Shown here: in pieces, positions 2,640-50,073 of the stretch | How positions within the stretch are numbered: position 1 is the first letter of the stretch | Layout: each line of letters starts with the position of its first letter | From: Bacteroidales bacterium | Lineage (GTDB): Bacteria > Bacteroidota > Bacteroidia > Bacteroidales > SZUA-534 | DNA length: 64,000 nucleotides | Direction of reading: 5' to 3' | Assembly (NCBI GenBank): GCA_045640185.1 | Contig: JAZUEN010000085.1 | Span: 3,525-67,524, forward strand | Program-made: the position numbers and the translations under genes | The notes under the pieces: generated by a model | Told to the model about the DNA's origin: nothing | Database searches by the model: none | Seen by the model: only the letters and a program-made list of their open reading frames with translations

Positions 2640-3509
2640 ATGGAAATTGTATTGTACAGTGTAATCGCTTTAGGCTTGCTTGGATTGGTGCTGGCTGCCA
2701 TTCTGTATGTAGTGGCCCAAAAGTTCAAGGTACAAGAAGACCCACGCATTGACGAAATTGCGGCACTGCTGCCTGGAGCCAACTGTGGTGGCTGTGGCTA
2801 CCCTGGATGTCGGGGATTGGCAAGTGCCTTGGTGTCGGCTACCGACATAAGCGGCATGAAATGTCCAGCATCAAGTGCCGAAGTAATGCGGCAGATAGGG
2901 ACAATCCTTGGACAGGAAGTAACCGAAACAGAGCCCAAAATAGCCGTAGTGCGTTGCAACGGAACATGCCAAAACCGACAAACCGTCAACAAGTATGACG
3001 GAGCCGACTCATGCGCATTCGCATCAATGCTATATGCAGGCGACACAAACTGCAGTTTCGGATGTCTGGGCCATGGTGATTGCGTAGCCGCCTGCAAATT
3101 CGACGCCATCAGCATCAACCCTAACACCGGATTGCCAATTGTCGACGAGACAAAATGCGTTGCCTGCGGAGCCTGCGCAAAGGCATGTCCGAAAGGCATC
3201 ATCGAACTGCGCAACCGTGGCAAGAAAGACCGACGCCTGTTTGTATCGTGCGTGAACAAGGACAAGGGCGCAGTTGCCCGCAAGGCCTGCACAGCAGCCT
3301 GCATCGGATGCGGAAAATGCACCAAAGTATGCGCTTTTGAAGCCATCACCGTTGAAAACAACGTGGCATACATCGATTTTGAAAAATGCAAGATGTGCCG
3401 CAAGTGCGCAGCCGAATGCCCTACTGGTGCCATTCACGAAGTAAACTTCCCTCCGCGCCCACCAAAGAGCGAGGCCACAGAAGAAAAAACTGTACAAACA
3501 AACGCATAG
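2640..3509 (+). CDS. rnfB: Rnf electron-transport complex subunit B (polyferredoxin)
   Basis: N-terminal TM helix, CGGCGYPGC motif, and several CxxCxxCxxxCP ferredoxin motifs (CVACGACAKACP, CKMCRKCAAECP). Confidence 0.9.
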   Translation: MEIVLYSVIALGLLGLVLAAILYVVAQKFKVQEDPRIDEIAALLPGANCGGCGYPGCRGLASALVSATDISGMKCPASSAEVMRQIGTILGQEVTETEPKIAVVRCNGTCQNRQTVNKYDGADSCAFASMLYAGDTNCSFGCLGHGDCVAACKFDAISINPNTGLPIVDETKCVACGACAKACPKGIIELRNRGKKDRRLFVSCVNKDKGAVARKACTAACIGCGKCTKVCAFEAITVENNVAYIDFEKCKMCRKCAAECPTGAIHEVNFPPRPPKSEATEEKTVQTNA

Positions 3510-3520
3510 ACCACTGAAAT

Positions 3521-4852
3521 ATGTTCAAGACATTCAAAATAGGCGGTGTGCATCCCGAAGCCAACAAACTTTCGGCCGCAAAACCAATTGAAGATGCACA
3601 ATTGCCAAAAGTTGCCATCATACCATTGGGGCAACACATTGGCGCACCTGCCACTGCCGTTGTCCAAAAAGGCGACGTTGTCAAAGTTGGGCAACTGATT
3701 GGCCAGGCCAACGGTTTCGTATCGGCAAACATACACTCGTCTGTATCAGGAACCGTAGCGAAGGTTGAAGATGCCGTTGATGTGTCAGGATTCAAGAAAC
3801 CAGCCGTATACATCAATGTTGAAGGCGACGAATGGCTCGACAACATCGACCGCACCGATAAACTTGTTTCCGAAATAAAGGACGATGCCAAGACTATCAT
3901 CGGCAAGATAAAAGACGCCGGCATAGTTGGCATGGGCGGAGCGACATTCCCCGCTCACGTAAAACTGTCAATTCCCGATGGAAAGAAAGCCGACTTCCTG
4001 ATTATCAACGGTGTGGAATGCGAACCGTACCTTACGGCAGACCACAGGCTGATGCTCGAGAAAAGCCAGGAGCTGATTGTAGGCATCAAGATTCTGATGC
4101 GCGCCATCAACGTTGACAAGGCATACATCGGAATTGAAGCCAACAAGCCAGATGCAATCAGCAAACTGACAGAGTTGTGCAAATCAGAGCAAGGCATTGA
4201 AGTTGTGCCACTCAAGTTGAAATATCCGCAAGGCGGCGAGAAGCAACTCATAAACGCAGTTTCAGGCCGCGAAGTGCCTTCAGGCAAACTGCCAATAGAT
4301 GCCGGCGCCGTAGTGCAAAACGTGGGCACCGCATTTGCTGTATATGAGGCGGTGCAGAAGAACAAGCCACTAATAGAGCGTATCGTGACTGTGACAGGCA
4401 AGAACGTCAAAAATCCGTCGAACTTCAAGGCTCGCATCGGCACGCCAATAATCGACTTGATAAACGCAGCCGGTGGCGACACCGAAAACAGCGGAAAGAT
4501 AATAAGTGGCGGCCCGATGATGGGAAAGGCAATGTCGAACCTAGACTCTACAATAACAAAGGGCACATCAGGATTGCTCCTTATGAATGAGGAAGATGCT
4601 GTCCGTCCCGAAGCTGGACCGTGCATCCGCTGCGCGAAATGCGTTGACGCATGCCCCATGGGACTTGAGCCCTATCTGCTGATGCAATACAGCCAACGCC
4701 AAATGTGGGCCGAAGATGAAGCTAACCACATCATGGATTGTATCGAATGCGGCTGTTGCATTTTCTCTTGCCCGGCAAACCGTCCAATCCTGGACTATGT
4801 GCGCTTAGGCAAAAACACTGTTGGTAAAATAATCCGTTCAAGAAAACAATAA
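3521..4852 (+). CDS. rnfC: Rnf complex subunit C
   Basis: 443 aa with GMGGATFP (NADH/FMN-binding-like) and two 4Fe-4S motifs (CIRCAKCVDACP, CIECGCCIFSCP), in operon position after rnfB. Confidence 0.9.
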   Translation: MFKTFKIGGVHPEANKLSAAKPIEDAQLPKVAIIPLGQHIGAPATAVVQKGDVVKVGQLIGQANGFVSANIHSSVSGTVAKVEDAVDVSGFKKPAVYINVEGDEWLDNIDRTDKLVSEIKDDAKTIIGKIKDAGIVGMGGATFPAHVKLSIPDGKKADFLIINGVECEPYLTADHRLMLEKSQELIVGIKILMRAINVDKAYIGIEANKPDAISKLTELCKSEQGIEVVPLKLKYPQGGEKQLINAVSGREVPSGKLPIDAGAVVQNVGTAFAVYEAVQKNKPLIERIVTVTGKNVKNPSNFKARIGTPIIDLINAAGGDTENSGKIISGGPMMGKAMSNLDSTITKGTSGLLLMNEEDAVRPEAGPCIRCAKCVDACPMGLEPYLLMQYSQRQMWAEDEANHIMDCIECGCCIFSCPANRPILDYVRLGKNTVGKIIRSRKQ

Positions 4853-5811
4853 TGGGACAATTAGTAGTATCACCATCGCCACACACTCGCAGCGGTGTTT
4901 CAACCCCGAACCTGATGTTCGGAGTAATTGTGGCATTAATGCCAGCGCTAGCCGTTTCCGTCCTATATTTCGGAATTGGCTCGCTTATAGTGACATTCAC
5001 ATCAGTAGCAAGCTGCGTACTGTTTGAGTATCTAATCCAAAAATTCCTGCTGAAGCAAAAGCCGACCATTTGCGACGGCTCAGCAATACTTACCGGCTTG
5101 CTGCTGGCATTCAACCTGCCTTCAAACTTGCCGATAGGGATTGTCATTGCCGGTGCCGCATTCTCGATTGGAGTAGTAAAAATGGCATTCGGCGGACTTG
5201 GCCAGAACCTTTTCAACCCAGCGATAGGCGGACGCATTTTCCTTCTGATATCGTTCCCCGTGCAAATGACAACGTGGCCAGTGCCCAACGGCTTGGCTAC
5301 AAGTTATGTCGATGCCGCAACAGGCGCCACATCGCTTGCAATGATGAAAAACCACTTCGGCACTCTGCCTTGCACTACCGACATGTTTCTAGGCCAAATG
5401 GGTGGTAGTCTTGGCGAAGTTTCCGCATTGGCACTGCTCATCGGTTTTGCATACCTGCTTTATAGGCGAATAATAACCTGGCACATACCGGTAACCATAT
5501 TCGCAACCGTATTCGTTTTCCAGGGAATACTATATTTAGCTAATGCAGAACAATTTGCATCGCCAGTTGCACATCTTCTTGCTGGAGGCTTGATGCTTGG
5601 CGCAATATTCATGGCGACAGACTATGTGACATCGCCAATGAGCGTTCCGGGCAAGATAGTATATGCCATAGGAATAGGTGTGATAACCGTCATTATCAGG
5701 AACTTCGGTTCGTTCCCTGAAGGCGTCTCCTTCGCAATTCTGATTATGAACGCCTTTACGCCTATCATCAACACTTACATTAAACCTAAACGATTTGGGG
5801 AGGTAAAATAA
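4852..5811 (+). CDS. rnfD: Rnf complex subunit D
   Basis: Polytopic NqrB/RnfD-like protein (SPSPH.. N-terminus, TGATSLA, MATDYVTSP). Its start overlaps the rnfC stop. Confidence 0.9.
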   Translation: MGQLVVSPSPHTRSGVSTPNLMFGVIVALMPALAVSVLYFGIGSLIVTFTSVASCVLFEYLIQKFLLKQKPTICDGSAILTGLLLAFNLPSNLPIGIVIAGAAFSIGVVKMAFGGLGQNLFNPAIGGRIFLLISFPVQMTTWPVPNGLATSYVDAATGATSLAMMKNHFGTLPCTTDMFLGQMGGSLGEVSALALLIGFAYLLYRRIITWHIPVTIFATVFVFQGILYLANAEQFASPVAHLLAGGLMLGAIFMATDYVTSPMSVPGKIVYAIGIGVITVIIRNFGSFPEGVSFAILIMNAFTPIINTYIKPKRFGEVK

Positions 5812-6491
5812 TGGCACAAAAGGAATCATCACTCAAGAACATGTTGCTTGCGCTGACCGTGATAGCGCTTGTGGCATCTGGCCTAATGGCATTGATGTAC
5901 AACGTCACATCAGAGCCGATAGCAAAATCGAAAGAGCAGAAATCGGTTGACGCAATAAAAGCCGTACTTCCAGATTTCGACAAGATAGAAAACGACACGG
6001 CCAACGACCTTGCAATATTCAAGGCATACAATGCCAATGGCGATTTTATTGGAGCTGCAGTCGAGTCGTACTCAAACAATGGCTTTGGCGGACAGATAAA
6101 GGTCATGGTCGGATTTGACGCCAACGGCAACATAACCGAATATTCGGTATTGGACCAAAAGGAGACTCCCGGACTTGGCACCAAAATGGTAAGCTGGTTC
6201 CGTCCGCAAGAGGCAAAAGAAAAGAGCCTGCTCGAAAAGGCTTTTGGATTTGAAGTCAAGTCGGCCGAAAAGCAAAGCTCAATTATCGGCAAGAACCCTG
6301 CGGTCAACAACATGACTGTATCAAAAGACGGTGGCGAGATAGACGCAATAACAGCATCGACAATCAGTTCAAGAGCCTTTCTAGAATCGATTCGCACAGC
6401 CTACAACGCATACGCCGCAGCCAACAACCAAAAGACAACCGATGCCAATTCTGGCGCAACTCAAACAGTGGAGGGCAACGACAATGAATAA
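5811..6491 (+). CDS. rnfG: Rnf complex subunit G (FMN-binding)
   Basis: N-terminal TM anchor, ETPGLG and the FMN-attachment context DAITASTISS. Its start overlaps the rnfD stop. Confidence 0.85.
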   Translation: MAQKESSLKNMLLALTVIALVASGLMALMYNVTSEPIAKSKEQKSVDAIKAVLPDFDKIENDTANDLAIFKAYNANGDFIGAAVESYSNNGFGGQIKVMVGFDANGNITEYSVLDQKETPGLGTKMVSWFRPQEAKEKSLLEKAFGFEVKSAEKQSSIIGKNPAVNNMTVSKDGGEIDAITASTISSRAFLESIRTAYNAYAAANNQKTTDANSGATQTVEGNDNE

Positions 6492-7071
6492 CAATCTTAA
6501 AGTACTGCTAAACGGTCTGATTAAGGAAAACCCGACATTTGTACTGCTGTTGGGAATGTGCCCTACCCTTGGCACGACATCATCAGCCATAAACGGAATG
6601 AGCATGGGATTGGCAACGACATTTGTGCTAATCTGCTCAAACATAGCCATATCGCTCATCAAAAACTTTATTCCGGACAAAGTGCGCATACCAGCATACG
6701 TTGTGGTAATTGCAGCTTTTGTGACAATTGTGGAGATGGTCATGCAAGCCTACGTGCCTGCACTTTACGCCACATTGGGTCTGTTCATCCCGCTGATTGT
6801 GGTAAACTGCATCGTGCTAGGCCGTGCTGAAGCATTTGCCGCAAAGAACCCTGTCATACCATCACTTTTCGATGGTCTGGGAATCGGTCTTGGCTTCACA
6901 TGCGCACTAACACTGCTGGGCTGCATCCGCGAACTGCTCGGGACCGGCAAGGTTTTCAGCTGCGCCATCTATCCTGAAAACTACGGAATGCTGCTGTTTG
7001 TCTTGGCACCTGGCGCATTCATTGCCTTGGGGTTTCTTATCGCACTAGTCAACAAATTACGCAAATCATAA
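6484..7071 (+). CDS. rnfE: Rnf complex subunit E
   Basis: The ATG at 6484 (MNNNLKVLLNGL..) overlaps the rnfG stop by 8 nt. It is preferred over the track start at 6442, which lies inside rnfG. NqrD/RnfE-like polytopic sequence. Confidence 0.85.
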   Translation: MNNNLKVLLNGLIKENPTFVLLLGMCPTLGTTSSAINGMSMGLATTFVLICSNIAISLIKNFIPDKVRIPAYVVVIAAFVTIVEMVMQAYVPALYATLGLFIPLIVVNCIVLGRAEAFAAKNPVIPSLFDGLGIGLGFTCALTLLGCIRELLGTGKVFSCAIYPENYGMLLFVLAPGAFIALGFLIALVNKLRKS

Positions 7072-7084
7072 AAAGAGCTGAACC

Positions 7085-7660
7085 ATGGAATACTTACTGA
7101 TGTTTATAGCGGCTGTATTTGTAAACAATATCGTACTGTCGCAATTTTTAGGCATTTGCCCATTTCTGGGTGTATCAAAAAAGATTGGCACAGCCCTTGG
7201 AATGGCAGGCGCCGTCGCATTTGTACTTGTCCTTGCAACTATAGTCACATACTTGGCGAACTCGTGCATATTGGTCCCATTCGGGCTTGAATATATGCGC
7301 ACCATCACCTACATCCTGATTATTGCCACATTGGTGCAAATGGTTGAAATAGTGCTAAAAAAGGCTTCGCCAGCGCTCTACTCCGCTTTGGGCGTATTTC
7401 TTCCGCTAATCACGACAAACTGCTGCATATTGGGTGTGGCGTTGCTGGTAATACAAAAGGATTTCAGCCTATTGGAAAGCGTTGTATATGCATTTTCAAA
7501 CGCCATAGGTTTCGGATTTGCATTGGTTCTGTTTGCCGGCCTGCGTGAGCAGCTAAACCTTTCAAACACACCAAAAGCGATGCGCGGCATGCCTATTGCT
7601 CTTGTAACAGCAGGCATTTTGGCCATGGCATTCATGGGATTCTCCGGCTTGGTGAAATAA
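7085..7660 (+). CDS. rnfA: Rnf complex subunit A
   Basis: 191-aa polytopic NqrE/RnfA-like protein (NNIVLSQFLGICPFLGVS). Last gene of the operon. Confidence 0.9.
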   Translation: MEYLLMFIAAVFVNNIVLSQFLGICPFLGVSKKIGTALGMAGAVAFVLVLATIVTYLANSCILVPFGLEYMRTITYILIIATLVQMVEIVLKKASPALYSALGVFLPLITTNCCILGVALLVIQKDFSLLESVVYAFSNAIGFGFALVLFAGLREQLNLSNTPKAMRGMPIALVTAGILAMAFMGFSGLVK

Positions 7661-7750
7661 AAGAGCAGGAAACGTAGCAAAGAACGTCAACACTACAAAA
7701 ACAGCGACACGCACAACCCCCTTATAGCAAGACATTTGCGCTCTTGACTC

Positions 7751-7786
7751 ACGACAAAGGCTGTCAGTATTGGCAGCCTTTGTCGT
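7751..7786 (+). terminator. hairpin terminator after rnfA
   Basis: Perfect 13-bp inverted repeat acgacaaaggctg / cagcctttgtcgt with a 10-nt loop. The trailing T-run is weak. Confidence 0.6.
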
Positions 7787-7920
7787 CTATATATCAAAAG
7801 CCGAAAATAGAGAAAACCCAAAACGCATAAATCAGCATAAAAAGCGCGAAAACTCTTTGTTTTCTCGCTTTTGAGACTTATTTTTAATGCGTTTTGATTT
7901 GTACAAAAAAAGATTTAGCA

Positions 7921-10248
7921 ATGAAACTCAACATTCGCTCAAAAATCAGTCTATTTGTGCTGATTCCAATGTCGGCATACATAATTTTTCTAATCACATT
8001 CGTTGGCGTACGTACAACCAATCAGGCAGAATTCGATTCAGGGCACACAAGCCGTCTGCTCTCGGAGCGAACAGCCTGCCATGCAGAAATTGTCATCAAC
8101 GAGCATAAAGCAAGCATAAAAATGATGTCAGACGCATTATCGTTTCAGACACCAACCATGGACGACGGGCAACGCACCTTGTTCCGCCAAACCTTGGCGA
8201 ACGTGGCACAAGGCCAAAAATGCTGGGCACTGATCATGTCTGGCTTCTATGCCGACACTAACTACACCGATGGCGAATGGGTGCTGCTTCAGCCAAACGC
8301 AAACGGCAGCATTTCAGTCACCGACAACCAAAGTTTCATCCAAAGCAAATATGGCGAAATACTAAACTCATCAACCACTTCACTATACGAGCCTTACGAG
8401 TATGGCGACAAATTGCTGCTGAACATCAGCACTCCAATTTACCAAAGCGGCAACATCTGCGGTTTTGCCTGCAAAGCCATCAACATTGACGACTTCGACC
8501 TGCTCGCAAAAAAAGTCGTAAAGCAATTCAACGACGAAGTAACAAAGCACATTGTCAGCAGCAAAGGCACTGTAATTTACTCAAGCAACCCTAACGATGT
8601 CAACCAGAAGTTCTCACTCGGCTGTGAAGACAGCGTAAGCGCCAAGCAGCTTCTCGACAAAATGAACAAAGGCGAGTACATAACAAACATATTCAACAAA
8701 GATGGTTCAAGACTAAACACATACTTTACCCCTATCAATATAGGGACAAACTGTTACTGGTCGCTAGCGCTGACATTTCCGCTGACAAACATTTCGCAGA
8801 CGGCACTGGACACATTGTCAAAATCGTTGCTGGTAGCCATCATCGGACTGATACTAATGATAGTCTTGGTGCTTTGGATTGCAAAAAGCATTACAGTGCC
8901 TATCAGAAGCACCACCAAAGCCCTACACCTTTTGGCTTTAGGCGACACCGAAAGCATCCAGACACTGGACATCAAGACAAATGACGAACTTGAAGAAATG
9001 TCAAAATCGCTCAATCAGGTTGTTGACGGCATGCGCAAGTCTGAAACATTTGCCTTAAACATTGGAGAAGAAAACTTCGACAGCGACTTTCAAACTTTAA
9101 GCGACAAAGACCGCCTGGGCGACGCCTTGATAAAGATGCGCGACAACTTGAGCAAGAGCAAGGAAATTGAAGCAAAACGCAAGGAAGAGGAAGAACTGCG
9201 GAATTGGGCTACTGAAGGCATTGCAAAATTTGCAGAAATTCTCCGCAAAGACCAAGACAACCTTAAATCATTAAGCTACAACATCATGTCGCATTTGATT
9301 GATTACCTGAATGTCAATCAAGGCGCCTTGTTTGTAATAAACAACGACAACGATGAAGAAACCGTATTTTCAATGACCGCCGCCATTGCCTACGGAAGAG
9401 ACAAGTGCATCAACCGCGACATCAAGATTGGCGAAGGCCTGATTGGCCGTTGCGTCTACGAGCGCAAAACCATATACATCACCAAGGTTCCCGACGACTA
9501 TGTGCAAATAACATCTGGCCTGGGGAATGCGAATCCAAGTTGTGTGCTAATTGTACCTTGCTCACTTAACGAAGAGGTATATGGCGTAATTGAAATTGCC
9601 TCGTTTGAAGAACTCAAGCCTTACGAAATCGAATTCGTCGAAAAACTGGGCGAAAGCATAGCATCAACAATAGCAAGCGTAAAAGTCACTGAAAAGACCA
9701 ACAAACTGCTAAAGGCAAGCCAAATACAACGCGAAGAGCTATCATCGCAAGAAGAGGAATTGAGGCAAAACCTGGAGGAAATGCAAGCCACTCAAGAAGA
9801 CCTTCGCCGGCAAATGGATGAAAACCAAGAGATGAAGGACAACCTGTCGAAAGAAATTGGCCTGATGAACTCACTGATGGACAACATTCACGACTACATC
9901 TACTTCAAGGACTTGGAAGGCAAATTCATACGAGTCTCAAAATCTTACCTGCGGTGCGCCGATGTCGACTCCTATGATGATGTCATCGGCAAGAGCGACT
10001 TCGATCTATGCGCTATACAAAGCGAGGCTCAGCGCTACTTCGACGATGAGCAGCGAATCATAAAGACAAAGAAGCCAATACTGAACCAGATACAATGTGA
10101 ACACCGTCACGACACAACTATCTACACATCGACATCAAAATATCCGCTATACGATAGCTACGGCAACGTGATCGGCACATTTGGCCTGACATCAGAAGTC
10201 ACCAACTCGATTTTGGCAAAAGGTTCTGCCGTAAACAAAGAACAATAG
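7921..10248 (+). CDS. transmembrane sensor: extracytoplasmic (Cache-like?) domain-HAMP-GAF-coiled coil-PAS, with no recognisable output domain
   Basis: The ATG at 7921 gives MKLNIRSKISLFVLIP.. (TM1), with TM2 at LLVAIIGLILMIVLVLWIA. The HAMP-like linker is LALGDT..NDELEEMSKSLNQVVDGMRKSE and the GAF-like block is RNWATEGIAKF..NQGALFV..GEGLIG..IASF. The coiled coil is EEELRQNLEEMQATQEDL and the PAS-like end is IYFKDL..VIGKSDFDLC..GNVIGTFGLT. The track start at 7894 is a TTG. Confidence 0.75.
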   Translation: MKLNIRSKISLFVLIPMSAYIIFLITFVGVRTTNQAEFDSGHTSRLLSERTACHAEIVINEHKASIKMMSDALSFQTPTMDDGQRTLFRQTLANVAQGQKCWALIMSGFYADTNYTDGEWVLLQPNANGSISVTDNQSFIQSKYGEILNSSTTSLYEPYEYGDKLLLNISTPIYQSGNICGFACKAINIDDFDLLAKKVVKQFNDEVTKHIVSSKGTVIYSSNPNDVNQKFSLGCEDSVSAKQLLDKMNKGEYITNIFNKDGSRLNTYFTPINIGTNCYWSLALTFPLTNISQTALDTLSKSLLVAIIGLILMIVLVLWIAKSITVPIRSTTKALHLLALGDTESIQTLDIKTNDELEEMSKSLNQVVDGMRKSETFALNIGEENFDSDFQTLSDKDRLGDALIKMRDNLSKSKEIEAKRKEEEELRNWATEGIAKFAEILRKDQDNLKSLSYNIMSHLIDYLNVNQGALFVINNDNDEETVFSMTAAIAYGRDKCINRDIKIGEGLIGRCVYERKTIYITKVPDDYVQITSGLGNANPSCVLIVPCSLNEEVYGVIEIASFEELKPYEIEFVEKLGESIASTIASVKVTEKTNKLLKASQIQREELSSQEEELRQNLEEMQATQEDLRRQMDENQEMKDNLSKEIGLMNSLMDNIHDYIYFKDLEGKFIRVSKSYLRCADVDSYDDVIGKSDFDLCAIQSEAQRYFDDEQRIIKTKKPILNQIQCEHRHDTTIYTSTSKYPLYDSYGNVIGTFGLTSEVTNSILAKGSAVNKEQ

Positions 10249-10301
10249 CGCATAGCCAATGACGCAACCATTTGACAGAAAATCTAAATAATAAATACGC
10301 A

Positions 10302-12626
10302 ATGAAAATAAAACTAAACATCAAGTCGAAAATTCTTCTTTATGTTCTTGGCCCAATCTCCTTGTTCATCATATTCCTGATATTGTTTGTCGGCATAAGG
10401 AACGCATCCCGCGCCACAACAAACGCTGAAGATTTGATCAAGCAAGTTGCCAAGACACAAAGCGCAAATGCCTCATCAATACTGAGCAAATACGTGTCAA
10501 GCGTCAATTCGTTGGCAAACGCCTTCAGCGGAGAAGCCGACTACCTGGAAGAAAACCAACGCGAAGTTTTCGGCAACGTCCTTTTCAATATGGCTAATGC
10601 GACAAACAGCGACATGTGGGTGATTTGGAACTCGGAATTCTATGCCGACAGCAACCACATGGAGCGTGAATGGATCTTGCTGCAGCCAGCAAACGGCATT
10701 GCAAGAGTCAACGACGTCACTTTCGAATTCGAGTCCAGATTCGGCAGCTGCCTTGAGACGTCAAAGACTACCGTCTCCCCATCGTACGAATTTGAAGGCA
10801 ACTGGAGGATGAACATCACCTGTCCTATCTTCCAAAACGGCAACATTTGCGGTTTTGCCGGCATAACAATACCAAATTCGGAATTTGATCCGGTAACAAC
10901 TGAAAAGACATTTGAGGAAACTCAGATATACGTTGTCAATCAAGAAGGGAAATGCATTCTATCGAATGCCCAGTCATCGCCATCCGATTATTTCACATTT
11001 AGTGGCGACACCACTAACCTTGACAAGTTCAAGGTGATGATTGCAAATGGAGACTTCACATCAAAGACACTGATGATAAACGACCAAAAGACATTCACCG
11101 TAATGTCGCCTGTCAAAGTTGACGGAATCAAGAATTGGGCCGTTGGCATCAGTCTGGCTATCGACAATGTAACCAAAAGCGAGATGCACTCGCTATACAT
11201 ATCAATACTGGCGGCAATCATTGGCTTGTTAACCATCTGCATAATAGTGATTGTTGTCGCACGTGGCATCACCAACCCTATCAAGTTGACAACCGATGCC
11301 CTAAAAGTACTTGCATTAGGCGACACGGGGAACATCAACACTCTGACCGTCAATACAAACGACGAACTTGAAGACATGTCAAAATCACTGAATCAAGTGG
11401 TTGAAGGAATGCGAAAATCGGAATCGTTTGCCTTGGACATTGGCAATGGCAAATTCGAAAGCGAATTCAAAACCCTTAGCGACAAAGACCGGCTAGGCGG
11501 TGCATTGATAAAGATGCGCGAGAACCTTCTTGAAAACCAGAAAAGCGAGACCGCACGAAAGGAAGAAGAGGAATTGCGCAATTGGGCAACCGAAGGCATT
11601 GCAAAATTTGGCGAAATTCTCCGCAAGGACCAAAACAACATGAAGTCGTTGGGCTACAATATCATGTCGAACCTTATCGATTACCTAAAAGTTAGCCAAG
11701 GTGCCCTATTTGTCGTAAACAACGACGACGAAAACGACATCTACTTTTCACTAGTCACAGCCATTGCATATGGTCGCGACAAATACATAAAGAAAGACAT
11801 CCGCGAAGGCGAAGGCCTTGTGGGGCATTGCATATACGAGCGCAAGACCATCTACCTCACCGACATTCCTGACGACTACATGAGGATTACATCGGGACTA
11901 GGCACGGCCAACCCAAAATGCATACTGATTGTTCCTTGCGTGCTGAACAACGAAATATTCGGCATAATTGAAATAGCATCATTCACCGAACTCAAGCCAT
12001 ACGAAATCGAATTCGTCGAGAAACTGGGCGAAAGCATCGCTTCAACTGTCGCCAGCGTAAAGGTTACCGAAAAGACCAACAAGCTACTGCAGGCCAGCCA
12101 GGAACAAAGCTCCGAACTCACTTCAAGAGAAGAGGAACTTCGGCAGAACCTTGAGGAAATGCAGGCCACCCAAGAAGACCTCCACCGCCAAGTTGAAGAA
12201 AACCAGAAGATGAAAGACGAACTCGGCAAGGAAAAGAGCCTGCTCGACTCTCTGATGGAGACGGTCAACGATACAATATATTTCAAGGACCTAGACAGCA
12301 AGCTTATCCGAGTGTCACGTTCATTCCTAAACACAGTGGAACTTCCCACTTACGAAGATGTCATAGGCAAGACCGATTTCGACCTTTGCTCCGACATGAA
12401 CGAGGCCCAAAAATTCTACGACGAGGAACAGCGCATCATCAAAACCAGAAAGCCGTTGCTCAACCAAGTTCAAGAAGAGCACCGACATGGCAGCATAATA
12501 TATGTATCAACATCGAAATATCCACTTATTGATGCAAATGGTAACGTAATTGGAACATTCGGACTAACCACCGACGTCACCAACACCATAAAAAAGAAGA
12601 AAGAAATGGATGATGAAGAAAAATGA
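10302..12626 (+). CDS. paralogous transmembrane sensor with the same architecture (extracytoplasmic domain-HAMP-GAF-coiled coil-PAS)
   Basis: ATG at 10302 (MKIKLNIKSKILLYVLGP..). The cytoplasmic half is collinear with the previous gene and mostly identical. It lies 53 nt downstream of that gene with no hairpin between. The track start at 10272 is a TTG. Confidence 0.75.
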   Translation: MKIKLNIKSKILLYVLGPISLFIIFLILFVGIRNASRATTNAEDLIKQVAKTQSANASSILSKYVSSVNSLANAFSGEADYLEENQREVFGNVLFNMANATNSDMWVIWNSEFYADSNHMEREWILLQPANGIARVNDVTFEFESRFGSCLETSKTTVSPSYEFEGNWRMNITCPIFQNGNICGFAGITIPNSEFDPVTTEKTFEETQIYVVNQEGKCILSNAQSSPSDYFTFSGDTTNLDKFKVMIANGDFTSKTLMINDQKTFTVMSPVKVDGIKNWAVGISLAIDNVTKSEMHSLYISILAAIIGLLTICIIVIVVARGITNPIKLTTDALKVLALGDTGNINTLTVNTNDELEDMSKSLNQVVEGMRKSESFALDIGNGKFESEFKTLSDKDRLGGALIKMRENLLENQKSETARKEEEELRNWATEGIAKFGEILRKDQNNMKSLGYNIMSNLIDYLKVSQGALFVVNNDDENDIYFSLVTAIAYGRDKYIKKDIREGEGLVGHCIYERKTIYLTDIPDDYMRITSGLGTANPKCILIVPCVLNNEIFGIIEIASFTELKPYEIEFVEKLGESIASTVASVKVTEKTNKLLQASQEQSSELTSREEELRQNLEEMQATQEDLHRQVEENQKMKDELGKEKSLLDSLMETVNDTIYFKDLDSKLIRVSRSFLNTVELPTYEDVIGKTDFDLCSDMNEAQKFYDEEQRIIKTRKPLLNQVQEEHRHGSIIYVSTSKYPLIDANGNVIGTFGLTTDVTNTIKKKKEMDDEEK

Positions 12627-12657
12627 AAAAAGGGACTTGCAAGTCCCTTTTTTTTTT
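12626..12657. terminator. strong Rho-independent terminator (A-run/hairpin/T-run, potentially bidirectional)
   Basis: aaaaa agggact tgca agtccct ttttttttt immediately after the stop of the second sensor. Confidence 0.85.
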
Positions 12658-12757
12658 GCTGAAAACGACTAAAAGCACTAACATAAATAAACGTATTTCT
12701 CGTATCGCGTAGTTCCAGTTTTTTTGTGACTTTTGCGCACGTTTTTGAAATATAGAC

Positions 12758-14137
12758 ATGTCAAACAAAACCGCAGCACAATCGTTAGGTACAGACAATG
12801 TAGGCCGGTTGCTTTTACAATACTCACTTCCTGCAATAATTGCCACAGCCGCATCTTCAATCTACAATATAGTTGACCGCATTTTCATTGGACAAGGTGT
12901 CGGACCTTATGCCATTTCCGGATTGGCTCTGACACTCCCACTAATGAACATTTTCGCAGCCTTTGGCGCAATGATTGGCATTGGCGCATCGACAATGGTA
13001 TCAATCTACATGGGACAGAAAAACCACGAAGATGCTGTGCGCACACTTGGCAATGCCCTAATTCTCAACGTCATATTAAGCATCATAACCTCAATTTTCG
13101 GGTTAATATTCCTTGACAAGATATTAATGGCAATGGGTGCCAGCCAACACACGCTTCCGTATGCACGTGAATTCATGGAGATTGCCCTTATAGGCAACCT
13201 GTTTGTTCATGTCTACCTTGGCCTAAACCATCTAATGAGAGCTTCTGGTTTTCCTAAAAAATCAATGTACATAACGCTCACTACTGTAGCTATCAACGTC
13301 ACCCTGAACCCAATATACATTTTCGTATTCAAATGGGGAATTCGTGGCGCCGCTTTGGCAACACTATGCGGCCAAGTTGTCGGAACCATCATAGTACTCC
13401 GCCACTTTCTGCAGAAAGACAAGCCTTTGCACTTTGTGAAAGGTTGCTTCAATCTGAAAGGTAAAATTGTGTCAAACATATTTTCAATCGGTCTTGCCAA
13501 TTTCATGACTTTGCTATGCACCAGCCTTGTGGTTGTATTCCTAAACCGAAGCCTTGGCAAGTATGGTGGCGATTTCGCAATTGGCGCCTTTGGCATCATC
13601 AATAGCCTTCTGAACCTCATTGCAATGGTTGTGGCCGGGTTTACACAAGGAATGCAGCCTATTGCCGGATTCAATTTCGGAGCCCGCCAGCTGGACCGCG
13701 TAAAGCAAGTGTTCAAGCTAACTCTCATTTGTGGCACATCAGTCACGACATTGGGTTTTGCATTGAGTCAATTGTTTCCTCGATTCATTGCATCATTGTT
13801 TACAACGGATGCACAACTGATTGAATTGTCAGCACATGGGCTCAGAATCGCCATGGCTACATTCTTTATTGTTGGCATACAAATGGTTACAAGCAACTTT
13901 TTCCAGTCAATCGGGCGTCCGAAAATTGCAATCATTCTGTCAATGACGCGCCAATTGATAATCCTCATTCCAATGATGCTAATCTTGCCTCACCTATGGA
14001 ACCTTGGGCTGACCGGTGTATGGATGAGCATGCCGACATCTGACTTTCTATCGGCAATTGTGACAATGTGCACACTTTGGTATTTCATCAAAGTGAAAAA
14101 GATATTCTCGAACTACGAGTATAGGCTAAAACAGTAG
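12758..14137 (+). CDS. MATE-family efflux transporter
   Basis: 459 aa with about 12 TM segments. The N-terminal LLLQYSLPAIIATAASSIYNIVDRIFIGQGVG is typical of MATE/NorM-like proteins. Confidence 0.85.
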   Translation: MSNKTAAQSLGTDNVGRLLLQYSLPAIIATAASSIYNIVDRIFIGQGVGPYAISGLALTLPLMNIFAAFGAMIGIGASTMVSIYMGQKNHEDAVRTLGNALILNVILSIITSIFGLIFLDKILMAMGASQHTLPYAREFMEIALIGNLFVHVYLGLNHLMRASGFPKKSMYITLTTVAINVTLNPIYIFVFKWGIRGAALATLCGQVVGTIIVLRHFLQKDKPLHFVKGCFNLKGKIVSNIFSIGLANFMTLLCTSLVVVFLNRSLGKYGGDFAIGAFGIINSLLNLIAMVVAGFTQGMQPIAGFNFGARQLDRVKQVFKLTLICGTSVTTLGFALSQLFPRFIASLFTTDAQLIELSAHGLRIAMATFFIVGIQMVTSNFFQSIGRPKIAIILSMTRQLIILIPMMLILPHLWNLGLTGVWMSMPTSDFLSAIVTMCTLWYFIKVKKIFSNYEYRLKQ

Positions 14138-41309: not shown

Positions 41310-41828
41310 TTATTCTATGCTGTAACCGTCGCTCATTTCATCGGAAAGTTCGTCAAAGTCGAAATCGTCCGATGTCATTTCCTCCCCGCTGAACAAGGAG
41401 TCGTCGCCTTCCAAAAAATCCGATTCTGGTGCGACTTGTGGCGGTATATGCCCATCAAGCCTCAACGCACAAGGTGCAGGCAGACTATCTTCGTCTGATT
41501 CTGAAATTATGTTGCCGAAAAGTAGCCTTTCCGAAAAATAATCAAACACATAAAGCATCTTTTGCCCCGTCTTGCCAAAAAACTTGCCAAAAAGCGTATC
41601 CGACATCAAACGGCACCCCTCGCCCATATCCATAAGCGTTATTTCTTCGAGTTTCTCCCATTTTGCATTTGACACGAAAAACGATGCAAGGAACTTGTCA
41701 TCGAAGTTCAATTTTTTCTGTATTGCATTGTGCAAATCGGCAAATGTATGTTTTGGAGAGACTTTGACGTCCAGTTCAAAATCCGGTTCCTCGTCTGAGA
41801 CAAACCTTATCGTATAAACCATTTCCAT
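41310..41828 (-). CDS. hypothetical protein with acidic C-terminal tail (pRiA4b ORF-3/MM3350-like impression only)
   Basis: 172 aa. ..FADLHNAIQKKLNFDDKFLASFFV.. and ..MLYVFDYFSERLLF.. loosely fit that fold family. The C-terminus is DDFDFDELSDEMSDGYSIE. Lies 8 nt upstream of miaA. Confidence 0.4.
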   Translation of the reverse strand: MEMVYTIRFVSDEEPDFELDVKVSPKHTFADLHNAIQKKLNFDDKFLASFFVSNAKWEKLEEITLMDMGEGCRLMSDTLFGKFFGKTGQKMLYVFDYFSERLLFGNIISESDEDSLPAPCALRLDGHIPPQVAPESDFLEGDDSLFSGEEMTSDDFDFDELSDEMSDGYSIE

Positions 41829-41858: not shown

Positions 41859-41866
41859 CAAATGTA
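41859..41866 (-). promoter_or_regulatory. candidate -7 promoter element (TAcaTTTG) for the hyp-miaA-GT-GT-CYTH unit
   Basis: The minus strand reads TACATTTG about 30 nt upstream of the ATG at 41828. No clean -33 TTTG seen. Confidence 0.4.
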
Positions 41867-41900
41867 GGAAAAAGCGCAATGCCTATTGTCCTTTTATGAC

Positions 41901-41934
41901 AAAAAAGGCCGGACGCTGAAGCATTCGGCCTTTT
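41901..41934 (-). terminator. Rho-independent terminator after the CCC-motif gene
   Basis: Minus strand: aaaaggccg - loop - cggcc followed by TTTTTTG. Confidence 0.7.
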
Positions 41935-41952
41935 CGCTAAACGTAATGGTAA

Positions 41953-42300
41953 TCAACCAAATATTTCGGAAAATATTGCACATGTCGTTGCCACTCCCAC
42001 AAATATATACACAAATATGGCAAACAACAGCCAGACTCCACTCAAGCATACTCCGATGATGCCACATATACGGCCTGATTTTGTATTCTTATACGACACC
42101 ATAGTGTATAATTCCGGATTTTGGCCATACAGTTTCATTGCCTTTCCTCCCATTACAATGGCTAAGATTCCCATGACAAATCCCAACAGCATAAATGGAC
42201 CGCAACAAATGCAAGCTATACTTAGAATTCCCATCACCAATATGGCTGAAGAATTCGGCAAAATGACATTGCCACCCTTTAACAATTGATTTTCTTCCAT
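41953..42300 (-). CDS. CCC-motif small membrane protein (DUF4190-like)
   Basis: ILVMGILSIACICCGPFMLLGFVMGILAIVMGGKAMKLY..SYKNTKSGRICGIIGVCLSG matches my memory of this family. 115 aa. Confidence 0.65.
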   Translation of the reverse strand: MEENQLLKGGNVILPNSSAILVMGILSIACICCGPFMLLGFVMGILAIVMGGKAMKLYGQNPELYTMVSYKNTKSGRICGIIGVCLSGVWLLFAIFVYIFVGVATTCAIFSEIFG

Positions 42301-42310
42301 AACAATAGTT

Positions 42311-42613
42311 TTATGACATTTTCAATAAATAATTAACTACTATAAGGACGACACATATTATAAATAGTGACAGCAAAATTCTACTTCCATTCCTGAATTT
42401 AAAAAACAGATGCGCCACAAGGAATATGAACAGCACAATCAAGGGTATCAATGCCGGGAACATCAAGAAGCTATCAACGACATTACCTTGAAGTAAAAGA
42501 TGCAATGCCCGTTGTGTTCCACACCACGGGCATTCAATACCTAGATATTTTTTAAAGAAACACGGAATGTCAAAATTGTAGTCAAACAGACTCAGCAACA
42601 TAAGTGCCACCAT
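42311..42613 (-). CDS. DUF2752-family membrane protein
   Basis: CFFKKYLGIECPWCGTQRALHLLLQG is the DUF2752 signature (C..GxxCPxCGxTRA). 100 aa with three to four TM helices. Confidence 0.75.
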   Translation of the reverse strand: MVALMLLSLFDYNFDIPCFFKKYLGIECPWCGTQRALHLLLQGNVVDSFLMFPALIPLIVLFIFLVAHLFFKFRNGSRILLSLFIICVVLIVVNYLLKMS

Positions 42614-42621
42614 CTAGATGA

Positions 42622-44610
42622 TCAACCTTTTTGGTAATTGATTGCCATTTCTGCAATTTTTGCCATAACCTCGTCTTGACCTGTTGTGTTGATGACAAGG
42701 TCATATACACGTTCTATGTCTCCCAACTGATTTACATATGGGGTAAACGTATGTGAGAATTTCATTTCCAGGCCTTGGAAATCTGTCTTAACGTCATAAA
42801 CCACACTTTCACCCGACAATACTCTTTCCCAAGTCTCGTTAAATCTATCCTTATCGTCTGACGATGTTGCGTATAGGTCGGCAAACTTCATCCCGACAAA
42901 TTCCGTAATATCGACTCTTGACAGTTGCAACATCTTGTCGTTTACAGAAATGATGGTTCCCGACAAGTCAATATCAATTGTACCAAGTGTATTGTTTATG
43001 GCATCTATGGCCAAGCGCATCTCTGCTTCACGACGAGACGCTTCTTCCTGCGTAGCTTGCATCTCCTCCATATTTTGGCGAAGTTCCTCTTCCTGCGACG
43101 AAAGCTCCTCGCTGCGAGTCTTTGATTCCGCAAGCAGCTTGCCTGTCTGCTCGTTTATTCTGACACTGGAAATCGTTGAAGCTATATTTTCGCCAAGCGT
43201 CTGCAAGAAGTCAATTTGATGCTGAGGAATCTCGTTAAACGATGCCAACTCGATGACGCCAAGCACGGTGTCGTTGATGACCAACGGAACGAGCAGCAGA
43301 TAGTTTGGTTCCGCGCCACCCAAACCTGAAGTCAGTCGGATATATTCTTCCGGTATTTCCTTTAGGTAAACCGGCAATTTTTCAAATGCGCAACGGCCGA
43401 CAAGGCCTTCTGTCAATTCAAAATTGACCTTTAGATATTTTTCGCGATTGTATGCAACAGCACTCTTCATTTCGAAGAATTGGTTGGTTTCATCCTGTTC
43501 GTTCAATATATATATGGCACCCTGATTGACTCCTAAGTAATCGATCAAATGGCGCATGACATTGCTTGACAGCATTTCCATGTTTTCGGAATTATGTCGC
43601 AATATGTCGCCAAAATCTGCAAGACCCTTTGTTGTCCAGTTTCTGATTTCGTCTTCTTTCTGGCGTTTCTTGTTTGCTTCGTCAGAAATGCTCAAATTCT
43701 TGCGCATTTCAAGCAAGGCATTGCCTAAAATGTCTTCCTCGCCCAATGACTCATACTCGGAACCATAATTTCCCCTTCCTATCTCCACGGCAAACTCTGA
43801 AGTCTTGCGCAACGAATCGATGAATCCGTTCAAAGCATCGCCCATGTCACCGATTTCGTCATTTTGTGTCACCAGCTTTTCATTAGGCAAAATACCCTTT
43901 GTCATTGTAAGCAGGAACTCCTTCAGTTTATAGACAGGAACGACTATGCTTCGTATTGTAAGCATACTTACTATCAATACGATTACAACAATTATCAAGA
44001 CTGAATACACCACGAAACTTTGGAACCAAGCAAAAGATGCCTCCATTTTATTATTGGCAGCTTCCGCTTTTTTTGACATCACTGCCGTCAAAGCCTCTAT
44101 CTCTGCCAAGATGTTATCGGTTTGAACCATGACCTCGCCACCATCTTCAACCATCATCTCGTATTCCAATTTAACTATACCTTCATAGTCATCGAATGTA
44201 ACAAGAGACAGCATTATTTCCTGATGAACCATAAAAAGGGTATCACTTATGCCAGAAAATATCGTTTCCAAAGCTTTCCGTTCACTTTCGTCCCAATGCT
44301 CTGAGATAGACATCAACTCATTGTGTAATTTCGGATACTGCACATCATGCATATTCTTCAACTTATTCTTTTCTTGGGTTTCTTTCATTTCGCTGACCCA
44401 GTGCCGTATCAACATTCGTGAATTTGTAATCATGGTATTGCAATCCTGCAGGCCAGACATGGACGGATTATATACGTTCATAATGTCATCGTTCAGCTTT
44501 CTATTCGCATTTGATGTTGAATATGTCACTAAACCATTGATGATTACAACTAGAAGAAGTGAGCCGAAGCCAATAAGAAGTTTATTGGAAATTGTTAAAC
44601 GAGCATTCAT
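42622..44610 (-). CDS. third paralogue of the output-less sensor: TM-helical extracytoplasmic domain-TM-HAMP-GAF-coiled coil-PAS
   Basis: The ATG at 44610 (MNARLTISNKLLIGFGSLLLVVII..) is preferred, because the TTG track start at 44637 lies inside the promoter motif. IRNWTTKGLADFGDILR..NQGAIYIL..TEGLVG..LASF and EELSSQEEELRQNMEEMQATQEE are collinear with the genes at 7921 and 10302. The protein ends after a PAS-like block. Confidence 0.7.
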   Translation of the reverse strand: MNARLTISNKLLIGFGSLLLVVIINGLVTYSTSNANRKLNDDIMNVYNPSMSGLQDCNTMITNSRMLIRHWVSEMKETQEKNKLKNMHDVQYPKLHNELMSISEHWDESERKALETIFSGISDTLFMVHQEIMLSLVTFDDYEGIVKLEYEMMVEDGGEVMVQTDNILAEIEALTAVMSKKAEAANNKMEASFAWFQSFVVYSVLIIVVIVLIVSMLTIRSIVVPVYKLKEFLLTMTKGILPNEKLVTQNDEIGDMGDALNGFIDSLRKTSEFAVEIGRGNYGSEYESLGEEDILGNALLEMRKNLSISDEANKKRQKEDEIRNWTTKGLADFGDILRHNSENMEMLSSNVMRHLIDYLGVNQGAIYILNEQDETNQFFEMKSAVAYNREKYLKVNFELTEGLVGRCAFEKLPVYLKEIPEEYIRLTSGLGGAEPNYLLLVPLVINDTVLGVIELASFNEIPQHQIDFLQTLGENIASTISSVRINEQTGKLLAESKTRSEELSSQEEELRQNMEEMQATQEEASRREAEMRLAIDAINNTLGTIDIDLSGTIISVNDKMLQLSRVDITEFVGMKFADLYATSSDDKDRFNETWERVLSGESVVYDVKTDFQGLEMKFSHTFTPYVNQLGDIERVYDLVINTTGQDEVMAKIAEMAINYQKG

Positions 44611-44634
44611 TGATAATACATTTTTGTTCCTTAC

Positions 44635-44642
44635 CAAAAATA
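44635..44642 (-). promoter_or_regulatory. candidate -7 promoter element (TAttTTTG) for the sensor/DUF2752/CCC unit
   Basis: The minus strand reads TATTTTTG about 25 nt upstream of the ATG at 44610, just downstream of a terminator. Confidence 0.4.
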
Positions 44643-44688
44643 AGGTTTTATTTTTAAGTGTAACGATTTTATGCGACTAATTTTGGAT

Positions 44689-44730
44689 AAAAAAAAGAAA
44701 GGATGGCAACCAATAGATTGTCATCCTTTC
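44689..44730 (-). terminator. Rho-independent terminator after the YfiR-like gene
   Basis: Minus strand: gaaaggatg - 16-nt loop - catcctttc followed by a T8 run. Confidence 0.7.
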
Positions 44731-49569: not shown

Positions 49570-50073
49570 ATGAGTGAACTTGTAGAAATACTGAAATATG
49601 AAGGTGAAATCACCTTTGATAAGATAGAATACATTCTAACTCTTTTTAATCAAAACCTGCCTAACACAGTAAGCATGGTTTGCAAGACAAGGCTATTCTC
49701 CATTATGGTTGAATGCCTTGAGAATGCATATCGCCACAATTATCGGAGTCCAGAGCAAAACCCACAAATAAAAATTGAGCTGAACCAGAATGGCGACAAA
49801 ACAAGCCTAACTGTAGGAAACCTTATCAACAACAATGAACTACCTTCGTTGACAAACCGCATTGACGAGCTAAACTTGATGGATATAGCTGAAATAAAGA
49901 AGAAGTACAACGACACAATCAAGAAGACCCACATTTCGGAAAAAGGTGGAGCCGGCTTGGGTTTGCTGAAAATACTTCGAAGCACAAAAGAGCCATTAAA
50001 GTACAGTGTCACAAAAATAGACAATGACTGTTCGTTTATAAACATTACGATAACAATTACTGACAATAATTAA
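49570..50073 (+). CDS. SiaB-like GHKL-type protein kinase (RsbW/SpoIIAB-like)
   Basis: N-box-like ECLENAYRHN and G-box EKGGAGLGLLKI in a 167-aa protein. Lies directly upstream of a DUF1987 gene. Confidence 0.65.
   Translation: MSELVEILKYEGEITFDKIEYILTLFNQNLPNTVSMVCKTRLFSIMVECLENAYRHNYRSPEQNPQIKIELNQNGDKTSLTVGNLINNNELPSLTNRIDELNLMDIAEIKKKYNDTIKKTHISEKGGAGLGLLKILRSTKEPLKYSVTKIDNDCSFINITITITDNN

Follow-up and report, generated by a model that had tools for sequence, protein, structure and literature searches.

The window analysed here is a stretch of 64,000 nucleotides (nt) from a Bacteroidales bacterium (lineage SZUA-534; assembly GCA_045640185.1, contig JAZUEN010000085.1, positions 3,525-67,524). 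On its reverse strand, a gene for a membrane sensor protein is followed by genes for two small membrane proteins, one of the DUF2752 family and one with a "CCC motif" (Table 1). The stop codon of the sensor gene is separated by 8 nt from the DUF2752 gene, which in turn is separated by 10 nt from the CCC gene. These gaps, the gene coordinates, the motifs and domains of the proteins, the hairpin closing the unit and the promoter element in front of it had been described in an initial annotation of this DNA, and all of them were confirmed. The window encodes three sensors of this type, and the initial annotation also held that none of them had candidate partners or outputs encoded with it other than the two small proteins. 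This proved wrong, since a gene for a YfiR-like (DUF4154) protein adjoins the sensor gene upstream, 148 nt away on the same strand. The comparison of loci described below points to this protein, rather than to the small membrane proteins, as the conserved partner of the sensor.

Table 1 Features of the sensor locus, with positions in the window (aa, amino acids; TM, transmembrane segment; 4HB, four-helix bundle).
Feature	Position	Strand	Description
Membrane sensor, 662 aa	42622..44610	(-)	TM1, helical 4HB-like outer domain, TM2, HAMP-like region, GAF, E/Q-rich coiled coil, PAS
DUF2752 protein, 100 aa	42311..42613	(-)	PF10825; N-terminal CPxCG knuckle, then two hydrophobic helices
CCC-motif membrane protein, 115 aa	41953..42300	(-)	NF040945, PF07666; two long hydrophobic helices, motif CICCGP
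Terminator-like hairpin and U-run closing the unit	41899..41937	(-)	-19.2 kcal/mol, z = -2.85
Promoter block AAAATAAAAccTTATTTTTG	44635..44655	(-)	Contains the Bacteroidota -7 element TAnnTTTG at 44635-44642
Hairpin and U-run ending the transcript of the YfiR-like gene	44697..44730	(-)	-30.3 kcal/mol, z = -6.0
YfiR/HmsC-like (DUF4154) periplasmic protein, 166 aa	44759..45259	(-)	PF13689, signal peptide
PRiA4_ORF3-like gene	41310-41828	(-)	
miaA	40399-41301	(-)	

The sensor starts at ATG 44610, and an equivalent M-N/K-A-R start was found in all orthologues. The copy of TAnnTTTG located 5′ of the sensor gene reads TATTTTTG. The bare pattern occurs in the window at chance frequency (57 observed vs 55 expected). 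This copy lies inside a block of about 20 nt, AAAATAAAAnnnTATTTTTG, that is invariant across six relatives, and the surrounding spacer is 46% identical. No TAnnTTTG was found in the 150 nt before the DUF2752 gene in the window and the six relatives (seven loci), and the RNA of the sensor-DUF2752 junction had no stable fold (z = -0.19). Another TAnnTTTG, at 41859-41866, lies beyond the closing hairpin and before the next gene. Because of the tight packing, the conserved promoter and the closing hairpin, the sensor, DUF2752 and CCC genes are likely packed as one transcript in this genome, as had been predicted from their spacing. The YfiR-like gene has its own terminator hairpin and is therefore predicted to be transcribed separately from the sensor gene. 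In relatives, a hairpin and T-run of differing sequence was found at the same position. Between 41000 and 46000, nothing matched Rfam at E ≤ 1. A recent insertion of the two small genes was considered and rejected, as base composition showed just the lower G+C expected of membrane-protein genes. A role in anti-phage defence was likewise set aside, as none of the three proteins had a meaningful match in PADLOC.

To follow the genes across genomes, two samples of loci were used. For the sensor, species-representative genomes were scanned; of the 80 loci obtained, almost all from Bacteroidota, 53 carried a sensor with a 4HB-type outer domain. A YfiR-like gene was found directly upstream and on the same strand in 29 of the 51 4HB-type loci with enough upstream sequence, and in none of 27 paralogues with other outer domains (Fisher's exact test: p = 8e-8). 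The adjacency spans Bacteroidales, Cytophagales (Marivirga, Cyclobacteriaceae, Roseivirgaceae, Chryseolinea) and others. DUF2752 adjoined one of the 53 4HB-type sensors of these species representatives, that of the close relative L002, leaving 52 without the pair. Weak DUF2752 matches in L007 and L008 were dismissed, because neither has the CPxCG motif. The best reading of these comparisons is that the conserved partner of the sensor would be the YfiR-like protein, the association being deeper than the link to the DUF2752-CCC pair and independently repeated.

The assignment of the YfiR-like protein rests on a match to PF13689 (124 bits against a cutoff of 24.9, E 5e-36). The protein fell below the NCBIfam equivalog cutoffs, clearly for YfiR proper (NF053586, 42.9 vs 85 bits) and narrowly for the TOL_0243 YfiR-like family (NF053591, 114.3 bits against a cutoff of 125). 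Its N-terminus is hydrophobic (residues 1-19). When a profile of 15 YfiR-like relatives was searched against PDB, YfiR chains were the sole matches, with a weak E-value of 0.017; a single-sequence search of the window protein against PDB gave no match. Nothing relevant was found in a literature search on YfiR in Bacteroidetes.

Additional genes were found beside the YfiR-like and sensor genes in some lineages. Cytophagales-type loci (L014, L017, L019, L024, L025, L029, L031, L035, L043, L066 and L079) have a 4HB-type sensor gene followed by one for a Tll0287-like protein (PF11845) with a CxxCH haem motif, the trio there being YfiR-like protein, sensor and haem protein. Distant Salinivirgaceae encode a 530-590-aa protein upstream of the DUF4154/sensor pair (L176:2193-3875, L178:2193-3863, L179:621-2381 and L181:1544-3127). 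This protein is absent from the window. Its Pfam marks for POTRA/Omp85 are weak or faint in two of these loci (L176 and L179) and missing from the other two (L178 and L181). By analogy with YfiB, it could be an outer-membrane third component.

For the cassette, metagenomes were scanned with DUF2752 as the focus, which yielded 80 loci (L089-L168). The CCC gene directly followed DUF2752 on the same strand in 50 of the 64 loci with enough downstream sequence, at a median gap of about 12 nt. Among the 50 loci whose upstream sequence reached 700 nt or more, a relative of the sensor stood beside the cassette in one (the close relative L089) and was missing from 49, an outcome that the initial annotation had itself named as one that would refute its proposal. 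The commonest context was radical SAM, Memo-like, DUF2752, CCC, LuxC-like acyl-CoA reductase and miaA (e.g. L108, L135, L097 and L123), and miaA was the third gene after DUF2752 in 12 of 36 unrelated metagenome loci. Other contexts included Smr / DUF2752-CCC-CCC / RecQ and, in other Salinivirgaceae, a PGA_cap-DUF2752-CCC-Ffh arrangement. A gene was located 5′ of the cassette on the same strand in 54 of the 64 loci, with a gap of 30 nt or less in 25 of the 54. Since many unrelated genes have the cassette closely attached behind them, tight spacing, on which the initial annotation had built, is not diagnostic of a link to the sensor; in L181, where the cassette is absent, the sensor gene abuts LuxC at 9 nt. 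Judged from these gene neighbourhoods, DUF2752 and CCC form a widespread, independent two-gene cassette. In L081 and L182, a GAF/PAS protein is encoded three genes upstream of the cassette. It showed domain-level similarity only, with no tblastn match, and was considered a coincidence.

DUF2752 genes occur with small two-helix partners (CCC/MpPF26, DUF4190 or TM2), and the window pair is typical of them, with the knuckle protein first and the CCC protein about 10 nt on. The window cassette is headed by a sensor gene, whereas other members are headed by Memo, DUF4412 or PGA_cap genes. In L143 (3480-4200), a gene for a TM2-domain protein and then a second, divergent DUF2752 gene adjoin the first DUF2752 gene, and DUF2752 may thus pair with different small membrane proteins.

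Within Salinivirgaceae the genes belong to a collinear string, Wzy(-) / (nitroreductase, POTRA/Omp85-like)-DUF4154-sensor-[DUF2752-CCC]-(LuxC)-PRiA4-like-miaA-glycosyltransferases, parts of which were lost patchily. The PRiA4_ORF3-like gene and miaA of the window belong to an older string, DUF2752-CCC-(LuxC)-miaA, which was also found in L174, L176, L178 and L181, the cassette part being absent from L181. The synteny of sensor, DUF2752 and CCC, whose conservation the initial annotation had put forward as a test, held inside this family, where the trio is present in eight distinct loci (the window, L002, L089, L174, L171-173, L175, L176/177 and L178) with sensor identities of 53-100%; it did not hold beyond. 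Scored beside the sensor only, the cassette was absent next to intact sensor genes in L001, L003, L004 and L169/170, all with 75-76% identity to the window sensor, and in L181 (52%), L179/180 (48%) and L005 (45%). In L003, the sensor gene is directly followed by miaA. A neighbour-joining tree of the sensors placed the four cassette-less close relatives (L001, L003, L004 and L169) in one clade. This pattern fits one gain of the sensor-cassette juxtaposition, followed by one or two losses. With a single gain on the tree, the linkage therefore amounts to one evolutionary observation. The junction itself varies among the loci. The gene ends overlap in L176 and L002, whereas in L171 (6002-6110) about 100 nt separate DUF2752 from the stop codon of the sensor gene and contain a terminator-like hairpin and T-run, GGTGATTTGATAA...TTATCAAATCACC, then TTTTTT. 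Co-transcription may be attenuated or lost in L171.

An outer domain of about 175 residues lies between the two transmembrane segments of the sensor (residues 6-24 and 199-217). A match to 4HB_MCP_1 spans the full profile at a sub-threshold score (17.2 bits against a cutoff of 27, E 0.004), and the same domain was matched in five of 15 orthologues. Pfam called a HAMP domain in 10 of the 15 orthologues, with no such call in the window sensor itself. On the cytoplasmic side, GAF_2 was matched at residues 343-480 and PAS_4 at 547-642 of 662, with a very conserved helix, EELSSQEEELRQNMEEMQATQEE, between them. The protein ends 20 residues past the PAS domain with nothing after, and all orthologues of 650-670 aa also end after PAS. 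The domain search thus bore out the earlier view that the sensor stops after PAS without a recognisable output domain. NCBIfam kinase matches to the sensor cover the HAMP region only (residues 155-273), and a profile search against PDB sequences returned generic PAS matches only, such as MmoS and Aer. The motifs quoted in the initial annotation are present and are common, with small changes, to the two paralogues of the window (7894-10248 and 10272-12626), which have the same cytoplasmic module and Cache-type outer domains. These paralogues, which have no YfiR-like, DUF2752 or CCC neighbour, lie in tandem, directly preceded by an Rnf operon (RnfB/C/D/G/E/A-like, 2640-7660) and followed by a MatE transporter gene (region 2640-14137).

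The sensor belongs to a large family of 4,414 clusters at 50% identity (E ≤ 1e-30), and the relatives that were fetched are almost all from Bacteroidota. Its members begin with Cache or 4HB and run through HAMP, GAF and an E/Q-heptad coiled coil to PAS. No enzymatic output domain was found in any family member examined. The longer relatives (837-1131 aa; P0165, P0181, P0197, P0198, P0214, P0236, P0239, P0241, P0255 and P0283) were no exception, as all ten lack a kinase, cyclase or phosphatase domain and have extra PAS domains only or, in one, hemerythrin.

The YfiR-like gene invites comparison with the YfiBNR/HmsCDE systems of Pseudomonas aeruginosa and Yersinia, in which periplasmic YfiR represses the inner-membrane HAMP-GGDEF cyclase YfiN. 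In Pseudomonas, YfiR represses YfiN by binding the outer domain of this HAMP-GGDEF protein (PMC4655355). As in YfiBNR, a gene for a secreted DUF4154/YfiR-like protein stands beside one for an inner-membrane protein with an outer sensing domain and a HAMP region, and the adjacency is kept over large evolutionary distances. However, no GGDEF match was found in the window sensor, its 15 orthologues or the ten longer relatives, and the outer domain of the window sensor is a predicted helical bundle rather than a PAS-like fold. The locus lacks a gene for a YfiB-type OmpA lipoprotein, the neighbours being those for a Wzy/TPR protein and MntP, and some relatives have a POTRA/Omp85-like gene upstream instead of YfiB. 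The YfiR-like gene of the window also differs in having its own terminator. Because it lacks GGDEF and a YfiB gene, and because its YfiR-like protein is under the equivalog cutoffs, the locus is, on sequence criteria, not a member of YfiBNR.

The DUF2752 protein of the window matched PF10825 at residues 18-65 (58 bits against a cutoff of 27, E 1e-15) and carries the sequence CPWCGTQRA, an instance of the conserved CPxCGxxRA knuckle. Nine residues are invariant in 17 DUF2752 sequences (C18, C28, P29, C31, G32, Q34, R35, A36 and H68). Transmembrane segments were placed at residues 49-67 and 79-97, with H68 in the first hydrophobic helix. The AlphaFold model is all-helical (mean predicted local distance difference test score, pLDDT, 79.8), and a Foldseek search of the model against PDB gave no match at E ≤ 0.001. 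The invariant Cys3-His set suggests a candidate metal site at the membrane face. The CCC protein matched NF040945, "CCC motif membrane protein" (81 bits vs 65), and PF07666 (MpPF26; 52 bits vs 37.2). Its cysteine cluster, CICCGP, lies in the first hydrophobic segment. A single cysteine (C32) is invariant across 13 CCC homologues, the motif being loose, and the structure model is a two-helix hairpin (mean pLDDT 75.7). Both families are catalogued and functionally uncharacterised; in agreement with the initial annotation on this point, a literature search found nothing on DUF2752 or "CCC motif membrane protein".

We consider it probable that the arrangement is a lineage-specific operon fusion and that the sensor is gated in the manner of YfiR and YfiN, with its output in trans. 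In an ancestor within Salinivirgaceae, the sensor gene would have been placed directly before an older, self-standing DUF2752-CCC cassette. The window cassette appears to have no promoter of its own and would most likely be read from the conserved promoter of the sensor gene, transcription stopping at the hairpin near 41900, so that expression of the cassette would track that of the sensor. By analogy with YfiR and YfiN, the YfiR-like protein would bind the outer helical domain of the sensor and set its state, and the signal would pass via HAMP to the GAF/coiled-coil/PAS module. This module would then act in trans by protein-protein contact, as suggested by the lack of an enzymatic output in the sensor and in all ten longer relatives. 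The DUF2752 and CCC proteins most likely assemble into a small membrane complex of their own, possibly with a Cys3-His metal site, whose role would be unrelated to this sensor. The distribution of the genes best fits a situation in which, in general, neither the sensor nor the cassette would need the other.

Several observations weigh against this explanation. The trio has been kept in the eight distinct loci over the whole range of 53-100% sensor identity, and most junctions measure -4 to +8 nt. L175 retains the trio despite differing flanks on both sides, and L171 retains it despite differing downstream genes, as a functional operon would. In L176-L178, the cassette is retained and the YfiR-like gene has been lost, and within Salinivirgaceae the YfiR link (10 of 14 loci) does not clearly surpass the cassette link (8 of 15) in strength. 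Finally, the YfiR-like protein is presumed to bind a 4HB domain, and the outer domain of YfiN is PAS-like and not a helical bundle.

The persistence of the trio at low sensor identity and through rearranged flanks would also be expected if, in Salinivirgaceae only, DUF2752 and CCC had been recruited as membrane partners or effectors of the sensor, for example contacting its transmembrane helices or HAMP region, and provided a local output. Such a recruitment would suit a sensor family without a recognisable output of its own, and it agrees with the junctions of the window, L002, L174, L176 and L178, which overlap or are 8 nt or shorter, with no promoter motif before DUF2752 there. It is nevertheless a doubtful explanation, although the least unlikely of the alternatives. 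The linkage is of single origin and counts as one independent observation, and the clade of close relatives, together with L181 and L179, keeps the sensor without an adjacent cassette. The cassette does without the sensor in 49 of 50 metagenome loci, and it also stands close behind unrelated genes. Moreover, the terminator-like hairpin and T-run of L171 lie between the sensor and DUF2752, and the other two paralogues of the window are without such neighbours.

The output side of the sensor was also compared with known signalling proteins. Unlike two-component sensor histidine kinases, the window sensor has no HisKA or HATPase_c match. It resembles 4HB-HAMP methyl-accepting chemotaxis proteins in its two transmembrane segments, its putative 4HB-like outer domain and HAMP-like region, and its lack of an enzymatic domain. 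Like chemoreceptors, it would therefore signal by protein contacts. In its coiled coil, Glu-Glu pairs spaced seven residues apart (508/509, 515/516 and 522/523) could be read from the sequence, as in chemoreceptors, and a few paralogues of the sensor are flanked by CheR and CheB genes. However, no MCPsignal (PF00015) match was detected at E ≤ 0.01 in the window sensor and 15 orthologues, GAF and PAS stand in place of the kinase-control hairpin, and no CheA, CheW, CheR or CheB was found in the window.

In two loci from different orders (L075:2964-11648 and L065:5980-13920), a sensor of the family is clustered with CheR, CheB, a small GAF protein and a GAF-PAS-PAS-SpoIIE(PP2C) protein. The L075 cluster has CheR on both sides of the sensor and is closed by DUF6272, and its SpoIIE phosphatase bears the same helix motif, EELxxNEEELRQNxEEM. 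In L065, the sensor is separated from CheR by a HisKA-containing gene. Paralogues in L037 (4284-8668) and L070 (42-3186) have a CheR neighbour as well. In the window, no CheR, CheB or SpoIIE gene was found. It has a lone DUF6272 gene (49570-50073, plus strand, E 1.7e-27), about 5 kb from the sensor and after a pseudouridine synthase gene. A literature search on CheR/CheB/GAF/SpoIIE found nothing relevant.

These CheR/CheB/SpoIIE clusters, the common helix motif and the heptad-spaced Glu-Glu pairs suggest, as an idea only, a methyl-accepting transducer that would signal in trans and be tuned by methylation. In its full form, this idea describes a chemoreceptor-like family without the chemotaxis kinase: the YfiR-like protein would gate the 4HB subclass from outside, members would be tuned through CheR/CheB methylation of the conserved QEEELRQNMEELQATQEE helix, the signal would pass in trans to GAF-PAS-PP2C (SpoIIE) partner-switching proteins, and the cassette would be a bystander. 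We hold this scheme to be rather unlikely, a little more so than recruitment of the cassette by the sensor.

It is quite improbable that the genes are simply adjacent, with DUF2752-CCC transcribed from an unrecognised promoter near the end of the sensor coding sequence (3′) and the order inherited within the long region running from Wzy to the glycosyltransferases: the 10-kb string (Wzy, YfiR-like, sensor, cassette, LuxC, PRiA4, miaA and glycosyltransferase) is indeed collinear in relatives and includes genes nobody would tie to the sensor, and L171 has its hairpin, T-run and gap of about 100 nt, but the gap in the window is 8 nt, no TAnnTTTG was found within 150 nt upstream of DUF2752 in the seven loci, the junction RNA of the window has no stable fold, and the gene ends overlap in L176 and L002.

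Returning to the operon fusion that we favour, it removes a tempting but weak lead, in which the output that the sensor lacks would be supplied by small Cys-rich membrane proteins. A better-supported lead takes its place, the pairing, across Bacteroidota, of a periplasmic regulator of the YfiR type with a sensor that is not a cyclase. For the cassette, the neighbourhood of Memo/radical SAM and LuxC-like/miaA genes is a starting point and might hint at its role. The arrangement in the window is an ordinary lineage-specific operon made from catalogued, unstudied families, and the pairing with the YfiR-like protein and the output-less sensor family are of more interest.

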